Shown here one piece after another: positions 4,160 through 27,192 of a stretch of DNA of 64,000 nt. A program made the position numbers and the translations under genes. Source of the DNA: a virus; the IMG/VR virus record IMGVR_UViG_3300040960_001746, one strand, 5' to 3'. Numbering within the stretch: position 1 is the first letter of the stretch; each line of letters opens with the position of its first letter. Under the pieces are notes generated by a model, which was given only the letters and a program-made list of their open reading frames with translations, had not been told where the DNA came from and did no database searches.

Positions 4160-4212
4160 TTGTATATAAATATTGTACTATATATTTTTTTAAAAGAAAT
4201 GGTAAAATAAAA

Positions 4213-13458: not shown

Positions 13459-16400
13459 TTAAGGATTAAAGAAATCAATTAGTGGTTCTCCTTCATAAGT
13501 AAATTTATTTAATACTTTTTGAAAAACTTTTGCGGATTCCTCAATACTTTTAGGTTTAAATTGTTGTGACGCCAATCTCGATTGATTAAACGAAGTAAAC
13601 GAACCTAACCTACCACCAACCTTGTTTTTTGTGTAGTCTGATCCAGTATAATCATTTTCGTCTTTAATATTTTTCCAAACTTTATAGGTTATTTCAAACT
13701 TTCTTTGGAATGTGGATTGTGTATAACTTTGTGGTGAATTAATTGCTTCTTCACCAAATAAGTCAAAATATTGTTTTCTACCTATCATATATAAGAATCC
13801 TACTGGACGATACATATATTCGTCTCCTTGAAAAATGTTATAATACTTTAAAGTATCTAATTTTGTGATTATTTTACCTTCATTATCAAACTCAACTTTG
13901 TTAAATTCTATTAAAGAAGGTGGTGTAGATCCTTGATAAAAATAAGCTATTTCTGAATTTTCAAAACTAGTTGTAGTTGCAGTAGTAGTAGGTGTATATG
14001 TGAAATATTTATTGCTTGAATCTGAGATAATATTACTACTCTCTTGATATGCTTTAGTTTCACCAGAAAACTCTACATTATTAGGATATTTAAGTTCATT
14101 ATCAGAAAATTCATCATTCGACCAATTAAAATCTTCATCTTGAAAATTGTTTGAATTAGCGAGTGCATTTGCAAAAAACATCGCAACATCTGCGTTAGTT
14201 GATCCATTTATAGTAGTTTTAATAAATTCAATATCATCATTATTTAAATTATCTGTTACCGTTTTAGGTACTCCTATACCATTTAATGTTTCAATAGTTA
14301 TCTGTCCAACCTCAAATTCTAAACCAGCCAATTCAGAATTAACACCAATACTATAAATCTGATTTGTATTATTTAAATTAGTAAACTCTATTTTAGGTAT
14401 CTCATTTGTCGCATTTAAATCGATATCAATGTCCGCAGTTATAGATGTTGTGGGTGGTGATATATATTTAGATTGTCGTACACCTTGAAAATTAGTTGTC
14501 ATATGATTAGGTGTAATACTGTGACTAACACTAGTAATCAAATATGCCCCATTAAAGAATGGTACGTTTTGTAAATCAAAATACATTAATGGTTGTATAT
14601 TCATACATCCCAACGCATCAACTTGACACGTATAGGATCTTGTTTTAAACAATCTTAATAAATCAGTACCCTGATATGTTTTTTGTGTTGCACCTCTTTT
14701 ATCAATTAAATCAGATAAAGCTCTAAAGTATTCACCCGTTTCTTTATGTTCTTGTTGATTTAATGAAACATTTTTAAATATAGTTTGGTTTTGTGCCCCA
14801 AATGCAACCCTAAACGCTACCAATGAAAAATCATCTTCAATATCACTCGCCTTATTTGTGTCTACCATATCGGGTGGTAATTCTCCATTTTTAAACGCAT
14901 AACCATCATTGTTAAAATAATAATTATTTGTTTCTTTTATATCTAAAACTTGTGATGCACCACCTACATATATACAACAATAAACTGGTCCTGATGAATC
15001 AGGTGACTCTAAAGTGGTAAAAGGTCTAAACATTTTTGCAACCTCTGTGGATTCTTTATAGTTAATGTAACTAGGTAGTATTTGGAATAAAAAGTTACTG
15101 TCTCTTAATAATTTAGACATAAAGAAATAAACACTTGTATCTTGATTATTCCCTAAACTTAAAAAACTATTTAAATTTATTGTTGCATCGCCACCAATAT
15201 CTCTCCACCCTCTATCTATAAACTTAAAGTATTGAATTAAATCTCTATCTCCTCCACCACAAACATTAAAACTTTTTTCTGTATCAGATACCCATTTGTC
15301 ATTAATATTTTTAAAATAGTTATATATTTGTAATTTTATCTCTTTTTTGTTTTTTTCACTAAGTTTTTGTTTTTCTTCCTCTACATTATTACCACTAGTA
15401 TCACTATTATCATTAGATTTTTTAGAGAAAAGTTCTGAGAATTTATTTATGTATTCATCTATATTATTAATTGTGATAAATAATTTATTTTTCCTATTTT
15501 TATCAAAAATGTTAGGATTTAATATTATAAGTTCTGTAGTTTTTGTTAATCTTTCAATTAGATAACTTTCTGTTGATCCTATATCGGTAGGTGTGTCACT
15601 AACATAATTATCTAATTCGGATTCAAACTTACCTGTCTGTGTTGAATTAAAATTAAGTTTCACCCAATCTTTAAATTTGTTTATTAATGCGTTTTTAACA
15701 CTAATAGGTAAATTTATCAATTCATCTTCTAATGGTATATCTTTAGACTCTTTAGACTTATAATAACTTATTTTAGTAGGGTAATTATCTTTACCTGTTT
15801 CAAAATTTGTATAATTCGTCCAAACTAATGGATCAGTATTTTCCTTATATCTCCATAATAATGAACCCAAGTAATAAACATATAATTCAGGTAACTTAAC
15901 AATTCTCGCCCCAACGAATTTATCATTAGGGAATAACGAATTTATAAACCCTTTTTTAAAGTCTCTATATGGAATTGTTGATAACAATAAATACCCCCTA
16001 CCAAAAATGTTTTGTTGTGCATAAAAATCATTACCCGTAAAAGTTTCTTCGTACTCTGTTTCGGTGTCATCACTAAAATATGTTTTATTCAAATATTTCC
16101 CTGTAGTGTCTCCAGTAGAAGATTTAACATCTATGTTTACTAATTTTACGTTTTCAAATTTAGTTATCTTAACATTTTTAGTGTTTAAATCTGATGCGGT
16201 ATTTGATGATTTTAATAGATTGTTACCTATTGATTCATCCCAAACATTATATATGTTATTAGTATAAAGATTATTACTTGACACATATTTAGTTTCATAT
16301 ATTAAATCACCCTCATATTCTTTCTTAGTGAATTTACTTTCGTCTTCAGGAAAAAATTTACTGTATTCAGTTGATTGCCTTATACTATCCCAAAGTTTGC

Positions 16401-19026
16401 TAGAGTTGTTTATAATGTCACTATAATTTTTACCGAATAAAATATAATCTATATTTGGGTTATCGTAATTTAACCCAAACTCAATGTCACCTATCTTTGG
16501 TTGTACCCCATCACCTTCTTTTAGTGCGTATGTTATAACACCATCATCCTCAACAACAATATTTTTAAAGAAATCTGTTTTACCTATTAAACTATTAGAC
16601 CCAAATTTATCCCCATCATTTTTTACCCTATCGATTATTTTATTGATAACTAAAACTGTTTGATTATTTACTTTTACGGATTCAAAAGCGTTAATTGCAT
16701 CAAATTTCGCATAATCACTAAATAAACCACCTGTAGTTGTATCAAAATTAGAATAATTTTGCCATAACGCAATTCTAGTTAACATTTGTTGTGTAAAATA
16801 TTCAATGATTTCTTTTTCTGTATTTAAAAATCTCAAATTTAAAAATGGATTAACATCATAATCCATAGGATTAATAGGAAACCAATTATCTGTATCAGTA
16901 CCATTATTTAATACACTAGTTTTAGTAATTTGTTGTAGTTCTTCTCTTTTTGATATGAAATTATCGAATACCCTTTCAACAAAATCATATTCAGGGAATT
17001 TATTTCTAGTGACACCTCTTACATCACCAATATAGATTTCTTTTTGCGCTTCTCCATCACTACTACTATAGAAAGAAGGCCAAGCAATAGATTTATTATT
17101 GTCTGACAAATTATTTAACAATGTATCAGGTATATCGGTTTGTTGTCTCTTAATTATATTATTTCTTTGTGAACCTAAATTTTCACTAGATTTAGTTATT
17201 TCATAAATCGTTTCAACCATTGCTTGTGTGTTATTGGATAACACTTCAAAACAAGTTTTTATTGTGGGTTTAAATTCATTTTCAGAATCATTAGATTTAT
17301 TAAATAATTTTTCGTTTAAGTCTTCTTGTACAATTTGTTGTTGTGATTTTATAATACTTTCTAAAGATTGTATTTCATTTTCAAGTTTTTCTCTAATTTC
17401 TCTAAAATCTGCAACTACTACAACTGTCTCTGGTAACATATTGTTATTAAAATATGTATTTTCACCAACTACAGTTTTAAAATTATTTATATCGAAATTA
17501 GTATTTACACTGTTACCGTCTTCATAATTTTTTTTCAAGTATATTTCATTCGTTGGTGTTGTCATATAGGATAATACCCTTTCTAATGAAAATCTTTGAT
17601 CTAAAATCAATTTATCGTTTGGTTTTTGGGAGTCAATTACAAAATTTTTCCAGTTATCTTCACTATTCTCAACTATATTAAATAACCCAATAAATTCTTT
17701 GTCTTTTGGCGTATCTAAATAATTAATAACACTATTTATCTTATTACCTAATTTACCTTGATTTTTGTCACCTACTACCTTCTTAAGATTAGTTAAACTG
17801 TCTGTATTAGTATATTGTTGGTTTCTATCGTCAGTAATATATTCATTATATTTAGTAACAATATCATTTAATGTGTTAATATAATTTTTAAAATTACCAA
17901 TAGATATACTATTAATTAAAAGATAATCCCTAATAGAAAAATAGTTAGTCCTATTAATTAATAAACTATCATTTATCCCACTAGTATCTATTTCTGTTCT
18001 ACTATTATTTATTTTTAGATAATCTTTAGTTGTTCCATCGACATTAGATTGATCGGTTGAATCAGACTCTTTGGTTATCGGTGTACCTATAAATGATTGT
18101 AATTCTTTTAGTATACTTTTTTTACCATTTAAGAATTTTAATGTTTTAAATGTATCTAAATCATCTTTTAGTGATTCTGACTCTACTTTAAGTTTTGATA
18201 TTCTTGTAAAGAAATCATCTAATTTTCTTATATTTAATTTACCTACCCTTTGTAATTCTTCTAAACTTTTACCTTCACCATTAGAACTTAAACCAAAACC
18301 ATTATTAGTCCTATTATAAATTTCATTTAATTTATTATATCCCTCTTTTGTATTAATAACACCAACAATATTTCCAATTACCATATCATTAAGAAACGCT
18401 TGTTGGAAACCTAAAAAGTTTGCACTTATATCAAAATTACCAGTAGCACCATCAAATTGAGAATTCCAATTAGTCATATGTAGACAGTAATCTACCTTTT
18501 GCCCGAAATAACCTTTAACTGAGAGTTGGAAAACAGGGTAAGGCATTTTAAAAAATATAGAGTATGGTGATTTAATATCATCATTACCTAAAACATCAAA
18601 CAATGCACTACCTCTTACATCTGTAAATGTTATATCCACTACAGGTACTAAACTAGCACTATACTTTATATTAATAGATTTAATACCAAAACCTTCTAAT
18701 ATACCAGAACTTCTAGTATCTTCACCTTTAAACCCACTTATATTTGTCCAATCAGTAGTTGCATATGTTTGTTGTGGGTTAGGATCTAACTTACCTTCAT
18801 TGTTATATCTTATTTTTGTTGATATAAAGTTAACCTCATCCTCAACACCTCTAGTCGTAAAACCTTCTCCATTATATGTTACCCTATTTCTAGGGTATGC
18901 AGAAAATTTAACATATATAAACATATCTTCAGGTGGTATAATATCATTTTGTATTGGATTTGGATCTACAACGAATACCTTACCTTTACCATTACCACTA
19001 CCAATTTCTTCTACGTTTTCTGCCAT
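13459..19026 (-). CDS. Very large baseplate hub/tail-tip protein with degenerate C-terminal GH19-like lysozyme domain
   Basis: N-terminal hub-like region (FGIKSINI..VDITFTDVRG), late-control-D-like C-terminal segment (GAYLITSVSHSI...TTNFQGVR), GH19-like remnant; follows gp53-like gene. Confidence 0.7.
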   Translation of the reverse strand: MAENVEEIGSGNGKGKVFVVDPNPIQNDIIPPEDMFIYVKFSAYPRNRVTYNGEGFTTRGVEDEVNFISTKIRYNNEGKLDPNPQQTYATTDWTNISGFKGEDTRSSGILEGFGIKSINIKYSASLVPVVDITFTDVRGSALFDVLGNDDIKSPYSIFFKMPYPVFQLSVKGYFGQKVDYCLHMTNWNSQFDGATGNFDISANFLGFQQAFLNDMVIGNIVGVINTKEGYNKLNEIYNRTNNGFGLSSNGEGKSLEELQRVGKLNIRKLDDFFTRISKLKVESESLKDDLDTFKTLKFLNGKKSILKELQSFIGTPITKESDSTDQSNVDGTTKDYLKINNSRTEIDTSGINDSLLINRTNYFSIRDYLLINSISIGNFKNYINTLNDIVTKYNEYITDDRNQQYTNTDSLTNLKKVVGDKNQGKLGNKINSVINYLDTPKDKEFIGLFNIVENSEDNWKNFVIDSQKPNDKLILDQRFSLERVLSYMTTPTNEIYLKKNYEDGNSVNTNFDINNFKTVVGENTYFNNNMLPETVVVVADFREIREKLENEIQSLESIIKSQQQIVQEDLNEKLFNKSNDSENEFKPTIKTCFEVLSNNTQAMVETIYEITKSSENLGSQRNNIIKRQQTDIPDTLLNNLSDNNKSIAWPSFYSSSDGEAQKEIYIGDVRGVTRNKFPEYDFVERVFDNFISKREELQQITKTSVLNNGTDTDNWFPINPMDYDVNPFLNLRFLNTEKEIIEYFTQQMLTRIALWQNYSNFDTTTGGLFSDYAKFDAINAFESVKVNNQTVLVINKIIDRVKNDGDKFGSNSLIGKTDFFKNIVVEDDGVITYALKEGDGVQPKIGDIEFGLNYDNPNIDYILFGKNYSDIINNSSKLWDSIRQSTEYSKFFPEDESKFTKKEYEGDLIYETKYVSSNNLYTNNIYNVWDESIGNNLLKSSNTASDLNTKNVKITKFENVKLVNIDVKSSTGDTTGKYLNKTYFSDDTETEYEETFTGNDFYAQQNIFGRGYLLLSTIPYRDFKKGFINSLFPNDKFVGARIVKLPELYVYYLGSLLWRYKENTDPLVWTNYTNFETGKDNYPTKISYYKSKESKDIPLEDELINLPISVKNALINKFKDWVKLNFNSTQTGKFESELDNYVSDTPTDIGSTESYLIERLTKTTELIILNPNIFDKNRKNKLFITINNIDEYINKFSELFSKKSNDNSDTSGNNVEEEKQKLSEKNKKEIKLQIYNYFKNINDKWVSDTEKSFNVCGGGDRDLIQYFKFIDRGWRDIGGDATINLNSFLSLGNNQDTSVYFFMSKLLRDSNFLFQILPSYINYKESTEVAKMFRPFTTLESPDSSGPVYCCIYVGGASQVLDIKETNNYYFNNDGYAFKNGELPPDMVDTNKASDIEDDFSLVAFRVAFGAQNQTIFKNVSLNQQEHKETGEYFRALSDLIDKRGATQKTYQGTDLLRLFKTRSYTCQVDALGCMNIQPLMYFDLQNVPFFNGAYLITSVSHSITPNHMTTNFQGVRQSKYISPPTTSITADIDIDLNATNEIPKIEFTNLNNTNQIYSIGVNSELAGLEFEVGQITIETLNGIGVPKTVTDNLNNDDIEFIKTTINGSTNADVAMFFANALANSNNFQDEDFNWSNDEFSDNELKYPNNVEFSGETKAYQESSNIISDSSNKYFTYTPTTTATTTSFENSEIAYFYQGSTPPSLIEFNKVEFDNEGKIITKLDTLKYYNIFQGDEYMYRPVGFLYMIGRKQYFDLFGEEAINSPQSYTQSTFQRKFEITYKVWKNIKDENDYTGSDYTKNKVGGRLGSFTSFNQSRLASQQFKPKSIEESAKVFQKVLNKFTYEGEPLIDFFNP

Positions 19027-19039
19027 AAAAAACTATTTT

Positions 19040-19363
19040 TTAAATACCATATAAAGTTTTATATTCTTCTACTTTATCTATGTATTCTTGTAAACTATCT
19101 CTAAATGGAAAGGGTACTACAATAATTTCGTCATCAGGAATATTTTCTTCTACACCACCATATTGTGGGTTTGCCAATAAAATTAACCACCCATGATATG
19201 GATTATCATAGTATATTTGACTTAGTTTATCTAATCTACTAAATTGAGATCTATAAACAACAGTTTTATCTGTAGGTTTAGTATCTAATTTTATAAACGG
19301 TAATGGTTTATATGACCCATTAACTTTAAATTTTTGATATCTATCGTAATATTCTTTTCCCAT
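19040..19363 (-). CDS. Baseplate wedge gp53 / LysM-like tail protein X
   Basis: RLDKLSQIYYDNPYHGWLILLANP motif. Confidence 0.85.
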   Translation of the reverse strand: MGKEYYDRYQKFKVNGSYKPLPFIKLDTKPTDKTVVYRSQFSRLDKLSQIYYDNPYHGWLILLANPQYGGVEENIPDDEIIVVPFPFRDSLQEYIDKVEEYKTLYGI

Positions 19364-19368
19364 CTATA

Positions 19369-22300
19369 TTAAGTTAACCCCTGACTTGTTATTGTAAACG
19401 TTTTAACTTTTCTAGTTTTACTTTTATTTTCAGTTAAAAACGCAGTAACTTTAATACTATCTTTTTTACCTTTTTTATATTCTTTTAAATCTTTTTCTTT
19501 TTCATTAAAATCTTTTTGTGCGTTTTCATATGCATCTTTATAATCTTTTGTTTTAAATGTTTTGAAATTCGTTTTTGCGGTTTCTAATGTTTGTGATGCA
19601 TCTGAAAGAGAATTTTCTAATTCTTCTAACTCATCAGGATTAACTAAATTATTAGACTCAAAATCTACATTTATATCAACAGTACTATCCGATGTTCCAT
19701 TAACATTATTTAATGTTTCATCTAAATTATTAAATTTATACCCTAATTTATTAGAAGGGTTAGGATCACTACCTTTAACAATCACATCTTTAGGTTCTTT
19801 TCCATCTTTAGTTTTAATAGTTATTTTTGATTTCCCATCACTTATTATTTCCAAAAGATCATCTCCATTACCATCTGCATCATCTGAATTGTTTTCCGCA
19901 TCTTTTTCTTGTTTTACTGTACCCTCATTTTTCAAATCTTCAACTAACTGATTCAATCCTGCTTCCCCTAAAATATCTTTTCTTATCTCACTTAATTTAA
20001 TACCATCATTTAATTTACCATCCTGTATGTAATCTGCCCTCGGTTCATATATTTCAGTATTTGCATAGTAGTTAAATGAAACTGCATTCTGTAATCTATT
20101 AATCGGACCTTCCAAAGAATGTCCACCAATTAAATCAATAGATAATTGTACAGATGCTATCATAGGTTGTACCCCAATACCTTCGGGATTCAAATCAAAT
20201 TGCGGCCCATCATAAGTTATAGATAAACTATTTATTTTAATTTTAGTGTGAAAGAAATCACCAATTCTGAGAATACATATTGGTGGTCTACCAAATGCTA
20301 AATTCTGAGGTTGTATATCTGAACCCTTATCATATATACTTGGTCCTTGTCTCATACATTGATTAAGGAATGTTAATCTACTATTTAAACCTTCAGGTGT
20401 TATACTATGAAATCCTGGTTGGAAATATTTAATCTTTTCAGAAATAGTTTTAAAGTAGTTTGGGTAATTTCCATCTATAAAATCAAAATACGCACTTTCA
20501 TCAATTAACAAACTATCTATAGCTTTAACTTCTTCAGGGTCATAAGTACCTGCTGCATTTTGTTTTTCTTCTTCTTTAGGTTCTACAGATTTAGAATTAT
20601 CGGGATCGTTTTCCCATGTAACTTCTACTATTTCTGCGTTACCTACAACTCCATTTGTTACGTATTTTATATTTTTAGTACCTATTTCTGATATTAAGTT
20701 ACTTTTTATTAAATCCGCCCTTTCTTTGGCAATTTTTTTCGATTCACTAGAATAACCATCTATAGTTATCTTGATTTCTGGGTCAGAAGAAGTTAATTGT
20801 TCTTTTAAGAATTCTTCAATTTCACTTAATATTTTATCAAGATCAGACACATTATATTCTTTGTCACTCGGTTCACATTCACTATTATCAGTAGGGCATA
20901 TATAATTTATAGTTCCCTCAGATTGTTTTTTTTCTAAGTTAGTAACCTTTTGTGATTTCTTTTCTTTAAGTTTTTTAAGGATTTCTTCTTTTGTCGATTG
21001 TGATACTGTAGAATCTAAAGACCTTAAAAAATCTTCAGGTGTAACACAACCCGCCATAAAACGTTCAATAAGATTATTACTTTTACCTCTATACCCATTA
21101 ATAACTCTTGGGTGATCGACTAATATTTTAAATGATAACGATGCACTTCTAGTTGTATTATTGTATGTATAAACAGGTTCACTTCTACCAATAAACTCAG
21201 TAGATGTCCAATTCGCATTTGAGTTCTCATCAAAGGTTAACCCATAAGGTGGGAACCACATTATTCTACCTTTATTACCACTCAAAACATCACCCGGTCC
21301 AATTTCACTAATAGGTAAATCCGCCAAATTATCCGCCCACGCTAAATTTTCTATTGAAAACATAAATTTCTTTCTAGTAGTAGTAGAGTCTAATTTAGTT
21401 GGGTGGTACTTTGGGATACCACTATCTAAAAGGACACTTTTTTCTTTTTCTGTTGTATCAGTAGAAAAACCATTAAGTCCTTCGGGTGATGTAAATAACC
21501 CAGTATTCCTTATTGCCCTTAGATAATTATATCTATCATTAACAGTCCATACTCTACAATAATTACCATTAGATTCCGCATCAATTAATAATGATTCACT
21601 AATTGCATTACCTCTACTAATTAATCTATTTTGTTTTTTATCTTTAAAGAATTTTTTAGTTTGATTTATATATACACTATCTTGGTTATTATCAACCAAT
21701 TGTTGTGTTTTATATAATAACGTTTTTTCATTAAAGTTTTGTTCACCACCAGTAGTCCAAAAGAATTTATTTGGTTCACCAAAGGGTTCTGAAATTCCCT
21801 CAATGGATGTTCTTTGTCCATTTCCCGTTGTGTCTACCTCACCATTGAAATCTGAACTATCAAAAGTTTTTGTTACTAATGCACCCCTATTAGTATTTTT
21901 TTCAGTACCAATATAATATCTACCATTAGTACCTTCATCTGATGTCCCAACAAATCTACTATCTTCATATAAAGGTCTATAAGGATTTCTATTTAATAAT
22001 TCAAATGCGAACTTAACCTGATCGATACCAGTTCTACTTAATAAAGTTTTCATTCTGATTTCAGTACCCATTGTTGGTTCTACACCTTCACCTTCATCAG
22101 TTGATCCACCATTTATTTTAGTACTAGTATTATATTCATTCCACCCAATCGCATCATTTGGTAAAGTATTAAAGAATTGGTTATTTCCTCTTAAGGTATC
22201 AACATAGTTATCTTTAACATTACCAACAGGTTCTGTAATACTAACAGTTTGATCAGTTTCAACTTGTGATATTTTATCAACAATTGTTTTTTCCAATTGT

Positions 22301-22827
22301 TGACCACCAACAAGTCCCAAAGAACTTTCTTTTTGGAAATTTAATGATTTATATTTATCAATTACATTAAATGGAAATGCAACACCTTTCTTATCACCTT
22401 TATTAATTAAATCATATCTTTCTGATGAATATGATATTGGATAAGGATTCTTTTCCTTTTCACCAAATTCCTCAGGTTGTGGTTTAGGTAATGTAGGTGG
22501 AATTGTTAATTCATAAGTAACATAATTATCATCTTGTGGAACATAAGGATTTAAATTAACATTTTGTGTAGTTCTAAAAAATGTTCCCAATCCAAACATT
22601 CTTTCATCCTCATTGTAGTGAACAGGTATATTCTCATCTCCTGTACCAAATATAGGTACATTAATAACTTTACCAATATCATCTAATTTAGATACTAATC
22701 CAGATTGTGTTAATGTTTCATTAACGGGTGGTGGTAAATTTCTACCAAGTAAATTATCTCTAAACTGTTGTGTTGATAATATACCTTGTTGATAAAATAT
22801 TCCTTGATGGTCTAATATTCCTGCCAT
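19369..22827 (-). CDS. Baseplate/tail-tube initiator-like virion protein
   Basis: WFPPY..TFDE....W....FIGRSEPVYTY..T.R..SLSF and PPICILRIGDFF...I.SLSITYD motifs of the tube-initiator fold; directly after tape measure. Confidence 0.7.
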   Translation of the reverse strand: MAGILDHQGIFYQQGILSTQQFRDNLLGRNLPPPVNETLTQSGLVSKLDDIGKVINVPIFGTGDENIPVHYNEDERMFGLGTFFRTTQNVNLNPYVPQDDNYVTYELTIPPTLPKPQPEEFGEKEKNPYPISYSSERYDLINKGDKKGVAFPFNVIDKYKSLNFQKESSLGLVGGQQLEKTIVDKISQVETDQTVSITEPVGNVKDNYVDTLRGNNQFFNTLPNDAIGWNEYNTSTKINGGSTDEGEGVEPTMGTEIRMKTLLSRTGIDQVKFAFELLNRNPYRPLYEDSRFVGTSDEGTNGRYYIGTEKNTNRGALVTKTFDSSDFNGEVDTTGNGQRTSIEGISEPFGEPNKFFWTTGGEQNFNEKTLLYKTQQLVDNNQDSVYINQTKKFFKDKKQNRLISRGNAISESLLIDAESNGNYCRVWTVNDRYNYLRAIRNTGLFTSPEGLNGFSTDTTEKEKSVLLDSGIPKYHPTKLDSTTTRKKFMFSIENLAWADNLADLPISEIGPGDVLSGNKGRIMWFPPYGLTFDENSNANWTSTEFIGRSEPVYTYNNTTRSASLSFKILVDHPRVINGYRGKSNNLIERFMAGCVTPEDFLRSLDSTVSQSTKEEILKKLKEKKSQKVTNLEKKQSEGTINYICPTDNSECEPSDKEYNVSDLDKILSEIEEFLKEQLTSSDPEIKITIDGYSSESKKIAKERADLIKSNLISEIGTKNIKYVTNGVVGNAEIVEVTWENDPDNSKSVEPKEEEKQNAAGTYDPEEVKAIDSLLIDESAYFDFIDGNYPNYFKTISEKIKYFQPGFHSITPEGLNSRLTFLNQCMRQGPSIYDKGSDIQPQNLAFGRPPICILRIGDFFHTKIKINSLSITYDGPQFDLNPEGIGVQPMIASVQLSIDLIGGHSLEGPINRLQNAVSFNYYANTEIYEPRADYIQDGKLNDGIKLSEIRKDILGEAGLNQLVEDLKNEGTVKQEKDAENNSDDADGNGDDLLEIISDGKSKITIKTKDGKEPKDVIVKGSDPNPSNKLGYKFNNLDETLNNVNGTSDSTVDINVDFESNNLVNPDELEELENSLSDASQTLETAKTNFKTFKTKDYKDAYENAQKDFNEKEKDLKEYKKGKKDSIKVTAFLTENKSKTRKVKTFTITSQGLT

Positions 22828-23020: not shown

Positions 23021-25075
23021 TTAACCCATATAATCTGTTGCCTGTTTACTAGAACTTACACCACCATCTCTGAAAGATCCATTCATATGACTAATAATCA
23101 TTTTTTCAATTTGTGGTTTAATTGTTGACATATCCAAATTCATTGCAGTTCCGTTTGGTGAAACAACTTCTATTCTACCACTAATATTTAAGTTACCAAA
23201 CTCCATACGAGACGGTGTTCCTGAATTATTACCTCCACCTAATAATTTATTAGGATCACCTGCCACTACTAAATCTCTATCGTCTAACGCTAAAGAACCA
23301 AAACTACCTGTCATAACTCTACCATTAGAACCTGGTAAAGATACCATATCTTCTCCCCGCGGAATTAAATCTTCAGTACCACTACCCTCACCTCCCAAAA
23401 GATCCTCTGTCTCAGAAATTTTCTGATTTAAATTCTTAAAAGCGTTTATAGTACCGTCTTTAATTTCTTTACCTAAATCAGACATACTTTTTAAAGTTTC
23501 ATCAATTTTAGAACTACCACTTTTATCATCTAACATTTCCCCTATAAATTGTTCAGATTTATCAATAAATACGTCACCTAATTTACCAATACCTTCTTTC
23601 ATTTTTTGAAGTTGTGGTGCCATTTCATCTGCGGTTAATTCATATATATTGGTTAAACCTGCAACTCTAGCTTTCCCCCCTTCTCTCATATTCTTTATCT
23701 GTTCGGACATTACTTTAGTATTTGTCGCAATATCCCTCAAATTTTCTTCTTGTGTTTGGTTTTCTTTCATAATAGAATCTACCATACCATCAGTAACTTC
23801 GTCTAATCCTAAATCACCAAACTCCTCTGTTTCAATTACAAATCTACCATCTTTAAATTTAGCCATAGACGCTAAACTTTCTTTCATTTCATCATCCCCA
23901 ACAGAAACAAACTCAGTTTTAATTTTAGAAATCTTAGCAGATTGTCTAGACATCTTAACCATATTTTCATAGCTAAGTCCCAATTGATCAGCAGTTGCTT
24001 GTAATTGCATTCTAGCTTCTGCGGGCATATCAAACTCTCCAGTTTCCTCATTAAATTGTAACATATTTTCAGTCATCTCCCCAACTTTCTTAGCTAACTC
24101 TTCTGGTTTGTTTCTAGCTAAATACATTGTCTCAAAAGGATCACCAAATGCTTGTGCTATATCACCACCTAACATTTGTAGATTTGCTGCTGCTTCAATT
24201 GCCGCCTCTGGTTGGTAAAACTTATCTGCCATTCTTAACATTTCCCCAACATCCACTCTCAATTTAACCCCTAATTTAGCCATTTCTGTCATACCTTTAA
24301 CACCACTCGCAAATGAATATCCTTGCATCGTATCAATATTTTGTTGTAAAACACTAATAACTTTAGTGGCGTTTAATCCCATAGCCTGTGCAGATTTATA
24401 TGTTTCTAATATATTTTCTTCTATTTGTTCAGAACTTAAACCCATTAACATAAAGGATTCAGTCATTCTAGCCGCTTCTGCTGCAGACATGTTCATAGAT
24501 TGTGATATTGACCCTACCATAATTGCGTCTTCTGCAGTTAAATTACTAATTCTTCCAGACTGAGAACTTATTTCAGTAAAAATATTTCTTAAGTCACTCA
24601 TTGAACCACCCATTTCCAAAATAGCAGGTAACGAACCTTTAAAACTTTGTTCCATAAACTTAGCACCCGCACCTGTCATACCTATATCAACACCAATCTT
24701 TTTGTATTCTTTAGCCATTTGTTGAGCAAGTGCAAATTGTTTGGAAAAATCACCTAAGAACTTTTTGAATTCATTACCAGCAGCAGAAATTTGAATAAAC
24801 ATTTGTCCTGTGGCAGTACGAGCATCCTTAACATCTTTCATAAGTCTATTAAGTTGCTTTATTTGTTCTTCAGTCTTTTTAATCTCTGAATCACTAATTT
24901 CACTTTTCGCTAATGCCTCTTCTCTTTGAGCTTTTAATAATTTTAGTTGTTTTTCTAAATTATTAACTGTTTCTTTACTTATTTCAATGTTACCAATTTC
25001 TATATCTCTCGCAGTAAGTCGTAATTCATTACGAAGTTTTTCCATTTGTAGGGAAATATCATCAAGTTCTGACAT
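23021..25075 (-). CDS. Tail tape measure protein
   Basis: Helical A/M/K/E-rich protein (AIEAAANLQMLGG...DPF) between tail chaperone and baseplate genes. Confidence 0.8.
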   Translation of the reverse strand: MSELDDISLQMEKLRNELRLTARDIEIGNIEISKETVNNLEKQLKLLKAQREEALAKSEISDSEIKKTEEQIKQLNRLMKDVKDARTATGQMFIQISAAGNEFKKFLGDFSKQFALAQQMAKEYKKIGVDIGMTGAGAKFMEQSFKGSLPAILEMGGSMSDLRNIFTEISSQSGRISNLTAEDAIMVGSISQSMNMSAAEAARMTESFMLMGLSSEQIEENILETYKSAQAMGLNATKVISVLQQNIDTMQGYSFASGVKGMTEMAKLGVKLRVDVGEMLRMADKFYQPEAAIEAAANLQMLGGDIAQAFGDPFETMYLARNKPEELAKKVGEMTENMLQFNEETGEFDMPAEARMQLQATADQLGLSYENMVKMSRQSAKISKIKTEFVSVGDDEMKESLASMAKFKDGRFVIETEEFGDLGLDEVTDGMVDSIMKENQTQEENLRDIATNTKVMSEQIKNMREGGKARVAGLTNIYELTADEMAPQLQKMKEGIGKLGDVFIDKSEQFIGEMLDDKSGSSKIDETLKSMSDLGKEIKDGTINAFKNLNQKISETEDLLGGEGSGTEDLIPRGEDMVSLPGSNGRVMTGSFGSLALDDRDLVVAGDPNKLLGGGNNSGTPSRMEFGNLNISGRIEVVSPNGTAMNLDMSTIKPQIEKMIISHMNGSFRDGGVSSSKQATDYMG

Positions 25076-25080
25076 AATAT

Positions 25081-26238
25081 TTATTTAGGATAACTCATTA
25101 TTTTACCACTCCACTTTCCTTTAGGACTAATAATTTCATCTGTGGATTCATCATATACCGCAAAATATTGATCGGTTTGTGGTTTACCTATTTGTGTAGT
25201 TTCAAATCCCATAATAAAAAACCTACTACCTTTTTTTAATAAAACGGTATTATTTCTTTCATTAAATGTTTTTTGAATTTTGAACTTTTTAAGGTCGTTT
25301 GAACTAAAGAAAGGTGAAGCGGGTGGAGATGCTTTAACAGTACTACCATCCATTCCGATAGTAGTATCAGTAGAAAATTTAATTTCTATATAATCTTGTG
25401 AAGTTATTTTTTCACCAACACTTTTATTCCCACCAACCTTTTTAGTTTCATCATCTAACTTTTTATTATAACCTTTAACATCATATGCTTGTTTTAAAGT
25501 GTTAATCATATCATCCAATAAACTCTCACTTTTTTTATACCAGTCATCTAAAAAAATACAACTTTTTTCAGTTTCTTGTCTATCGTCTTTTTTTCTTAAA
25601 TTTTTACGATATTTTTTATCACAATAATTCCAAGTATTTAATAAATTTTCTTGTATAAATTCTGGTTGATCAACTATAGAAGAAATAAAAACAGTTTTAT
25701 CCATATCACCGTTTTCATCTAACCCATCATCAGTAAATGATAAACAATAACATACACTATGTTCCGCTTTTTTACCATACCTACTAATAAATCGTTTAGC
25801 GTCTATTGCTTTACCTGCAACTCTTTTTATTCTACCCAATGTACGAGGACCATATTTTAAAACTCTACCACCAACTCTAATAGTTGTTCTCCTACCTAAA
25901 ACTAATTGTTCTAATTCTTCCATAGAAACTTCATCTGAAGATAAAATAGACAATAAACCATCCTCATCAGTCGCATCCATATCTAATACTTCAATTTCAA
26001 TTTCATCCCCAACTTTAACTGAAGAGTCATATTCTTTTGCAACACTCAACTCAATATAATATTCATTTTCAGTAGTATTATTAACCTCCCCATCTGCAAT
26101 AACAATAAATTTTTGTTTTTTTGTAGGTACATCACCTTCTATGGGTGAAATTGCAATACCACCTTGTTCTAACAGATAGTCTATTGTTTTATTAATACTT
26201 TCTACTATCTTAAGAAATTTATCATTTTTTTCTAACAT
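25081..26238 (-). CDS. Hypothetical protein with NusA-N-terminal-like segment
   Basis: IVIADGEV...IELSVAKEYDSSVKVGDEIEIEV; (I/L)xE leader; late motif at 26252. Confidence 0.65.
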   Translation of the reverse strand: MLEKNDKFLKIVESINKTIDYLLEQGGIAISPIEGDVPTKKQKFIVIADGEVNNTTENEYYIELSVAKEYDSSVKVGDEIEIEVLDMDATDEDGLLSILSSDEVSMEELEQLVLGRRTTIRVGGRVLKYGPRTLGRIKRVAGKAIDAKRFISRYGKKAEHSVCYCLSFTDDGLDENGDMDKTVFISSIVDQPEFIQENLLNTWNYCDKKYRKNLRKKDDRQETEKSCIFLDDWYKKSESLLDDMINTLKQAYDVKGYNKKLDDETKKVGGNKSVGEKITSQDYIEIKFSTDTTIGMDGSTVKASPPASPFFSSNDLKKFKIQKTFNERNNTVLLKKGSRFFIMGFETTQIGKPQTDQYFAVYDESTDEIISPKGKWSGKIMSYPK

Positions 26239-26282
26239 AATATCTTTTTTATATAAATATTAAGATATTAGTAAAATAACAA

Positions 26283-26439
26283 TTAATCATTGTTTTTTGA
26301 TTTGTTATTTTCGTTGATTAGTATTCTTCTACTATATGTAGGCATAATCATAATATCAGAATATGAGTAACCAAATCTAACTAGAAAATTTATCTCTTTG
26401 TGTAAATGTAATAGAAAATCAGAGTTCAGGCCAGAAAAA
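26283..26439 (-). CDS. Frameshift extension of tail assembly chaperone (gp51/gpT-like), no start codon of its own
   Basis: The +1 frame after AAT TTT TTC reads SGLNSDFLLHLHKEINFLVRFGYSYSDIMIMPTYSRRILINE...*. Confidence 0.7.
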
Positions 26440-27192
26440 ATTCGATCCGAATCTAAGAAAGGTATCTAAGGACTCTCCCCCTTGAGTCCTTCCTTTTGTT
26501 TTAAAATCCATACCAGGTGTTATTTCGTCAATGTATTTTCTTAAAGATCTAGAATCTATAATGGGTAATTTTTTTAGTATGTTGGAAATTCTAATTTTAT
26601 CTCTTTCACCATCAATAGATTTGACTTGTTGTTCTAATTTAAACATTAATCTATTAGATACACCCTCATTATTTCTTTTTTCTTCTTTCTTTTCTTTAAA
26701 CTCTACTATTTCCTCATCTCTACCTGTTAATAAAGTAAAAGTTACTTTTTTATTAGTTTTAGGTAAAGTGTACTCAAACTCACCTTTATCATCTGGTTTA
26801 ACTGTTAATTTTTTTTGTTTTAAAGAACTTAAATCAATAGTACATTCTACAAATTCATTTTCTTCAGGATGAAAAACTAATTGTTTATATTCAGAACCAA
26901 AAGAAGTAACTCTCAAAAATAACATTATTGCGGTTCTATCACCGACTAATAAATCTTCAACACTAAAGTTTAAATCTTTGATTTTTCTTTTAAGTAATAT
27001 ATCTATCATTTTTCCACCACTAGAAATGTTAGGTGAAGTTAGAATTGATTCATCCATCGCAGTTAAATATTCTACTTTAACTGTCTTAATATTATTTCCA
27101 TAAAGAATTCCTTGTGACGGTAATTCTAAAATATCATACGGTGTCCTATACTCCTCTGGAATATAATCTGGACTTAATTGATTATCTGTCAT
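26419..27192 (-). CDS. Tail assembly chaperone / baseplate hub assembly protein (T4 gp26-like)
   Basis: ELPSQG..Y, YLTAMDE.IL, LLVGDR.AI..FLR, LP.T...V.F.LLTG.DE, DSR.LR.YI..I.PG, ends FFWPEL. Confidence 0.85.
   Translation of the reverse strand: MTDNQLSPDYIPEEYRTPYDILELPSQGILYGNNIKTVKVEYLTAMDESILTSPNISSGGKMIDILLKRKIKDLNFSVEDLLVGDRTAIMLFLRVTSFGSEYKQLVFHPEENEFVECTIDLSSLKQKKLTVKPDDKGEFEYTLPKTNKKVTFTLLTGRDEEIVEFKEKKEEKRNNEGVSNRLMFKLEQQVKSIDGERDKIRISNILKKLPIIDSRSLRKYIDEITPGMDFKTKGRTQGGESLDTFLRFGSNFFWPEL

Follow-up and report, generated by a model that had tools for sequence, protein, structure and literature searches.

A NusA head-like segment in a protein encoded between the chaperone-like and tape-measure-like genes of uncultured T4-like aquatic phages

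Here, we describe a gene on the IMG/VR virus record IMGVR_UViG_3300040960_001746, analysed as a single stretch of 64,000 nucleotides (nt), hereafter the window. The gene encodes a protein of 385 amino acids (aa), termed P0001, in which an initial annotation had placed a fragment of the N-terminal domain of NusA, proposing that it was derived from the host and bound RNA polymerase. The gene and the parts of its product are given below, with the confidence of structural models expressed as the predicted local distance difference test (pLDDT).

25081..26238, minus strand: gene for P0001, an open reading frame (ORF) of the window
26164..26238, minus strand (residues 1-25): amphipathic helix at the N-terminus (I..IN..ID.LL.E), with a conserved LxE at its end, from alignments and low-pLDDT models
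25960..26154, minus strand (residues 29-93): NusA N-terminal-domain 'head'-like segment, from Pfam, hhalign, Atlas structure rows and weak structural matches
25897..26097, minus strand (residues 48-114): stretch overlapping the NusA-like segment, strongly acidic (21 D/E and 2 K/R, net charge -19)
25759..25896, minus strand (residues 115-160): strongly basic stretch (15 K/R, net charge +13) with the tetrapeptide LGRR, a predicted beta hairpin and a long helix (131-158), from models and composition
25474..25758, minus strand (residues 161-255): helical region with C163, C165, C206, C227 and R220, from invariant alignment columns and the model
25084..25416, minus strand (residues 275-385): C-terminal beta-rich domain, the best-modelled part of the protein (pLDDT ~90)

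A HMMER search of 1.84 billion representative proteins assigned P0001 to a family of 31 representative clusters, which is confined to phage-like contigs, has complete members of 311-423 aa and includes no fused form. In an alignment of 28 members, the N-terminal helix was present in every member having an N-terminus, the most distant included, while C163 and C165 (a CxC pair), C206, C227 and R220 were invariant in all 28, and the C-terminal beta domain was conserved. The invariance of these four cysteines, which lie in what is predicted to be a helical bundle, points to a disulfide pair or a metal site. The NusA-like segment was kept in ~20 of the 28 members and was deleted or unrecognisable in the eight most distant ones (P0160-P0170); it is therefore a module set into a conserved scaffold, and the family as a whole can dispense with it. 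At one locus, the Tara contig L019 (10001-11272), the distant member P0163 carries at the same genomic position a longer insert with extra cysteines (CPNCC) in place of the NusA-like module, and the family seems able to exchange its N-terminal module. Searches of PHROGs, NCBIfam and Pfam with distant family members returned no informative family, and neither P0001 nor its 684-aa neighbour had a tblastn match in 50,697 phage records.

The peptide on which the NusA assignment was based, KFIVIADGEV...EVLDMD, corresponds to P0001 residues 43-88 and thus to nt 25975-26112; of the interval proposed for it, 25975-26116, the start is right and the end lies 4 nt too far. The top Pfam match of P0001 was indeed the NusA N-terminal domain (NusA_N, PF08529; E value 0.0012, 19.5 bits), in which residues 29-86 were aligned with profile positions 45-96 of 119. 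This score lies below the Pfam gathering score of 23.8 bits and covers part of the domain. Three orthologues passed the gathering score (P0008, 28.8 bits; P0016, 26.1 bits; P0022, 26.9 bits), all 18 close homologues (36-92% identity) matched the same profile, and it was the top match, at E 0.1 or better, in 16 of the 28 diverse members, so that the segment is indeed found in orthologues. In every member, the match was confined to profile positions ~43-99 of 119, short of full domain coverage. The invariant and best-conserved stretch among the close homologues is the motif VGDEIEI. As for the remainder of NusA, P0001 scored 13.5 bits against the NusA protein model TIGR01953 (cut-off 253), and no KH domain or significant S1 domain was matched by Pfam in P0001 or the 28 family members. 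The LGRR, which had been read as a NusA-like element about 25 aa further on, does occur at residues 114-117, 26 residues past D88; its sequence varies across the family alignments (with GQRT, ARGT or GGPK, among others, in its place), and no alignment to NusA included it.

The same relation was recovered by hhalign, using a comparison set of 31 NusA N-terminal domains, taken from a phylum-wide genome search of Pseudomonadota only and 35-93% identical to that of Escherichia coli. The phage family scored 36 against this alignment (P 2e-5 to 1e-4, probability 55-76%) over 33-47 columns, in which residues 41-82 of P0001 (extending at most to 101) are paired with residues 59-95 of E. coli NusA (extending at most to 116), and the single best NusA reached an HH probability of 86% against the family. 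An alignment of the family with the lone E. coli NusA sequence had given a probability of 0.4% and is superseded by the 31-sequence alignment. Composition does not account for the match, since the reversed NusA alignment scored 10 and 60 column shuffles scored at most 19.6. Taken together, the Pfam and hhalign results support the presence of a NusA N-terminal-domain-like segment that is reproducible and above chance.

The origin of this likeness is a separate matter. When the N-terminal 160 residues of P0001 were used in a word-seeded profile search of 5.8 billion proteins, the matches were family members, one S1 protein and one NusA, the latter at 25 bits (E 4.4) over 25-32 aligned residues. 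With no close NusA among these proteins, nothing suggests a recent capture from a host, and the proposal of a host-derived fragment is not borne out. We consider it doubtful that the likeness is a convergent beta-alpha-beta motif devoid of shared ancestry or functional meaning. The VGDE-I/V-x-V-x-V-x-D turn also occurs in S1/OB domains, and the S1 resemblance of P0001 is limited to this turn of 16-18 residues: a PDB profile search yielded only an 18-residue S1 motif (E 0.27), the S1 protein of the 5.8-billion-protein search scored 30 bits over 16 residues, and S1-type models of NCBIfam reached E ~0.05. The HH probabilities are likewise modest enough to be compatible with convergence. The whole five-stranded S1/OB domain was not matched. 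Against the convergent explanation, the NusA_N match spans 35-55 residues and extends beyond the VGDE turn to the strand KF.V and the helix L..A. Moreover, when the family was aligned with NusA residues 1-345, which include NusA's own S1 domain, the best hhalign match was still the N-terminal domain and not S1. The three orthologues above the curated threshold of Pfam, the distance from the shuffled controls and an alignment register shared by the sequence and structure matches also speak against convergence. The resemblance would be one of remote homology or of convergence.

Structural modelling gave a consistent, albeit weak, picture of the same likeness. AlphaFold2 models of the whole P0001 (pLDDT 67.6) and of residues 1-160 alone (71.6) both displayed a helix at residues 2-24, a poorly ordered linker, the head-like segment (strands 39-47, 61-63 and 79-85, with helix 64-67 between the last two), and then a pair of short helices, a hairpin in which the LGRR is located, and a long helix at residues 131-158. 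A Foldseek search with the N-terminal model yielded nothing significant, with weak NusA chains recurring at E 0.4-3.6 (5lm7, E 0.41; 1hh2, 46 columns at a root-mean-square deviation, rmsd, of 3.3 Å). The Atlas structure search with residues 25-160 returned NusA clusters in 10 of 10 rows, with template modelling (TM) scores of 0.27-0.34 over residues ~38-92. In a wide structural search with the N-terminal model, none of the best 50 rows was a NusA, each being a helical match to residues 85-160, and an Atlas feature search with the N-terminal part gave no usable match. For the C-terminal beta domain, the Atlas structure search recovered scattered families and no convincing known fold was found, the SH3b-like Foldseek matches having E 0.09 or more and an rmsd of 11 Å.

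Comparison with the NusA N-terminal domain (SCOP fold alpha-beta(3)-alpha-beta-alpha) further delimited which part of it is matched. P0001 resembles this domain over 35-55 residues of the sequence profile (P0001 residues 29/41-82/93 against E. coli NusA 59-95/108), in both of which a strand, a short helix (L..A) and a strand bearing the VGD turn follow one another, with a similar acidic character, and with an alignment register on which the sequence and the weak structural matches agree. The matched part is the NusA 'head' sub-domain (beta2/3, alpha3 and beta4; E. coli residues 59-95, at most 108), which amounts to only about half of the domain; after the last strand, P0001 continues with ~40 residues of other structure, and where NusA carries S1 and KH domains after its N-terminal domain, P0001, a phage tail-module protein, has none. 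This delimitation bears directly on the claim that the segment binds the flap tip of the RNA polymerase beta subunit. In the cryo-electron microscopy structure of a NusA-bound paused complex, helices alpha1, alpha2 and alpha4 in the N-terminal domain of NusA enclose a hydrophobic cavity that the beta flap-tip helix enters, and the substitutions R104A and K111A in alpha4 abolish pause enhancement (PMC5842316). All three pocket helices fall outside the aligned region, and in a low-confidence extension of the alignment the positions of R104 and K111 are occupied by A89 and L96 of P0001, within the acidic stretch of net charge -19. Because the match is limited to the head, the pocket helices and R104/K111 are unmatched, and the LGRR is variable and unaligned, flap-tip binding is not supported. 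If anything, the analogous partner would be the alpha C-terminal domain (alpha-CTD) rather than the beta flap, given that the NusA head contacts alpha2-CTD in the hisPEC-NusA structure (PMC5842316).

The window is AT-rich (26-35% G+C) and coded mostly on the minus strand, and the phage is T4-like; it encodes a gp32-like protein as well as a UvsX-like recombinase, and its sheath protein is closest to that of Microcystis phage Mel-JY01 (33% identity). The phage group is one of uncultured T4-like aquatic myoviruses. The features that immediately flank the P0001 gene are as follows.

26419..27192, minus strand: gp26-like 'baseplate hub' protein of 257 aa in the tail assembly chaperone position (phrog_150, E 1.7e-6; PF12322, E 2.9e-4)
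26283..26440, minus strand: +1-frame extension of the chaperone gene, ~50 residues with no start codon, conserved in 7 of 7 loci
26252..26259, minus strand: promoter-like motif TATTTATA, 14 nt upstream of the P0001 ATG, recurring upstream of neighbouring genes
23021..25075, minus strand: tape-measure-like protein of 684 aa, starting 5 nt past the P0001 stop, assigned by position, length and helical repeats

Along the coding strand, the window encodes the sheath, a 287-aa ORF, the tube (162 aa), two endonuclease genes, genes of 252, 1250 and 780 aa and the gp26-like gene, followed by P0001 and by genes of 684, 1152, 107 (gp25-like) and 1855 aa. Seven loci were compared, namely the window, L001, L015, L016, L017, L018 and L019, and in all seven the P0001 family gene lies between a chaperone-like and a tape-measure-like gene. 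The order from the tube to the large protein, endonuclease genes aside, recurs in every locus that is long enough (L001/L002, L016 and L019), and the parts covered by the shorter loci L015, L017 and L018 agree with it. In these relatives, the tube is followed by three genes (four in L019), a gp26-like gene of 257-261 aa, a gap, the P0001 family gene, a protein of ~690 aa, one of ~1190 aa, a gp25-like protein of 108 aa and the large protein. The gene order persists down to an identity of 19% between P0001 family members, and the spacing between the stop of the P0001 family gene and the start of the tape-measure-like gene is 5-16 nt in the relatives. Homologues of the gp26-like protein occur in Flavobacterium phage immuto and in Mel-JY01, where the order is tube, homologue, small ORF and tape measure.

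The gap of 165-185 nt upstream of P0001 is filled by a +1-frame peptide with the core LHKEINFLV..GYSYSD.M.MPT.SRR, and the zero frame and the +1 frame overlap at a T-rich run (AAT TTT TTC TGG). These observations support a programmed frameshift, +1 (or -2), in the gp26-like gene, which its conserved +1-frame extension marks as a two-product, frameshifting tail assembly chaperone. Further downstream, position suggests a hub/spike protein at 19369-22827 (1152 aa), a gp25-like protein at 19040-19363 (107 aa) and a gp6/7-like protein at 13459-19026 (1855 aa). None of the three had a significant family match, the 107-aa protein reaching only E 0.026 with phrog_7145, and the baseplate of the clade is thus essentially unannotatable by sequence. 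In the 684-aa protein, a central block (KFYQPEAAIEAAANLQMLGGD and ~60 following residues) does not vary among six loci whose sequences are otherwise 41-62% identical.

The initial annotation had called the protein late, and this agrees with the late-type promoter-like motif found just upstream of P0001. The motif TATTTATA occurs within 5-30 nt upstream of many minus-strand start codons, including those of neighbouring structural genes; read on the plus strand, TATAAATA is found at 4165, 12411, 22847, 26252, 27221, 34131, 35802, 36750, 47579, 53980, 58499 and other positions. The total of 34 in the window is not above the shuffled expectation of 24.5 (standard deviation 5.1), while the positions are clearly non-random; the motif is a candidate late-promoter element, in an orientation different from that of TATAAATA in T4. 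The tape-measure-like gene has no TATTTATA motif of its own. In the related loci, judging from the translations, a similar AT-rich sequence probably precedes the P0001-family gene.

In T4-type phages, internal proteins carry a short N-terminal targeting leader, common to the cargo, which ends in (L/I)xE and is removed by the prohead protease. Delivery of P0001 with the virion had been proposed as possible from an (I/L)xE leader. LxE is conserved at residues 22-25 in the P0001 family, and a profile of the first 26 residues of the family matched no other N-terminus in the window. P0001 thus lacks a recognisable leader common to the other proposed cargo proteins, and the LxE tripeptide by itself is weak evidence for delivery.

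P0001 might also be a pilot or internal protein that is ejected and acts on something other than RNA polymerase, a proposal that we rate as unlikely. Its basic stretch (residues 115-160) and its cysteine region could, for example, bind the cell envelope or the leading end of the DNA, by analogy with the injected N protein of phage Mu. This proposal would accommodate the sharp segregation of acidic and basic blocks (net -19, then +13), the conserved LxE at residues 22-25 followed by the poorly ordered linker, the tight coupling of the gene to the tape-measure-like gene, which belongs to a class whose proteins are themselves ejected in T4 and lambda, and a divergence faster than that of the chaperone and tape-measure neighbours. 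No DNA- or envelope-binding family was matched in Pfam, PHROGs or NCBIfam, however, the SH3b-like fold matches of the C-terminal domain were insignificant, and the N-terminal helix is not a leader shared with the other proposed cargo of the window.

The more specific proposal, that a virion-delivered P0001 docks its NusA-like module on the host RNA polymerase, at the alpha-CTD rather than the beta flap tip, and thereby displaces NusA or redirects early transcription, seems to us very improbable. It draws on a local similarity that is real, on the ten nearest Atlas structures of residues 25-160 all being NusA, on the head being the part of NusA that contacts alpha2-CTD (PMC5842316), and on a module that has the acidity of a docking surface and does not vary in close relatives; a position within the tail lumen would moreover permit ejection into the cell. 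Set against these points are the unmatched flap-tip-binding helices and R104/K111, the lack of a close NusA relative in 5.8 billion proteins, the distant orthologues that occupy the same genomic position without the module, and a gene placed in the tail-assembly block rather than among early or host-takeover genes. The full scenario, in which P0001 rides the tail lumen with the tape measure, is ejected, and binds the host alpha-CTD through its module so as to compete with NusA and thereby change pausing or termination as early as the first seconds after infection begins, is one that we would put forward only as a long shot.

We instead give about even odds to the reading that P0001 is a clade-specific protein of the chaperone/tape-measure unit, equipped in most lineages with an acidic, NusA-head-like interaction module. 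According to this proposal, P0001 and the tape-measure-like gene would be expressed together, driven by the late-type promoter-like motif of P0001, and P0001 would act with the frameshifting chaperone and the tape measure in tail or hub assembly. It would probably end inside the tail, in the lumen or close to the hub, and leave the particle at ejection. Its conserved scaffold comprises the N-terminal amphipathic helix, the C-terminal beta domain and the helical region with four cysteines, which may form disulfides or a metal site. In most lineages, the small, highly acidic alpha/beta module and then the basic stretch lie between the helix and the remainder of this scaffold. The module itself may serve as a protein-protein interaction unit, either remotely homologous to the NusA head or convergent on it, and not as a flap-tip-binding mimic.

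Several observations weigh against placing P0001 in a tail-assembly unit. By hhalign, it shows no relation to T4 gp25, gp26, gp51, gp27, gp28, gp29, gp48 and gp54, nor was one found to the tape measures of phages immuto and Mel-JY01, and no relation to a tail protein was found via PHROGs, Pfam, NCBIfam or PDB folds. To our knowledge, textbook accounts describe no gene that lies between chaperone and tape measure. P0001 also evolves faster than its neighbours, the identities to L019 being 53% for the chaperone, 41% for the tape measure and 19% for the P0001 family, and this fast divergence, combined with an invariant VGDEIEI, fits a host-facing role as well as an assembly role. Finally, the 684-aa protein is called tape-measure-like from its position, length and helical repeats only, and matched no Pfam, PHROG or NCBIfam family. 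As a separate possibility, we considered whether P0001 could be a split-off N-terminal part of a tape measure and rejected this, as the two display no similarity and the 684-aa protein is long enough alone.

Tail assembly chaperone/tape measure units are well known from lambda (G/GT-H), P2 (E/E'-T) and Mu (gp41/42). The order of these units, that is, tube, two-product frameshifting chaperone, tape-measure-like protein, hub/spike and gp25-like protein, is recognisable around P0001. They differ in having no gene between the chaperone and the tape measure, and P0001 resembles neither class of protein; the frameshift in the P0001 phage, moreover, is to the +1 frame. Among the T4 hub-assembly genes located beside genes 26 and 29 (gp51, gp27 and gp28), gene 28 overlaps gene 29, and P0001 likewise lies directly before the tape measure, just after the gp26-like gene. 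T4 gp27 is also close to P0001 in size (391 versus 385 aa). However, the T4 hub proteins have no detectable sequence relation to P0001 (hhalign P 0.19-0.73), and the barrel architecture of gp27 is unlike the predicted fold of P0001, which is mostly helical with a small beta domain. The N protein of phage Mu, encoded in the tail module, is injected with the DNA and binds the DNA end. Mu N is likewise a non-canonical gene product of the tape-measure/hub region, and an ejected role is conceivable for P0001; the parallel is functional only, and the N gene lies after the tape measure, whereas that of P0001 lies before it.

If the conservative reading is true, P0001 would represent an uncharacterised accessory gene of the chaperone/tape-measure unit, in a clade of large T4-like phages from aquatic settings that has been little studied. 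It would be of use in annotation and would add to the cases in which a gene separates two partners that normally adjoin. The likeness to the NusA head is genuine, though distant and limited to a sub-domain, and by it a small alpha/beta unit known only from NusA is found in a protein of a virion module. It would bear on transcription biology only if the module binds RNA polymerase; should ejection and docking on alpha-CTD prove true, P0001 would imitate part of a transcription elongation factor and be brought into the cell by the virion.
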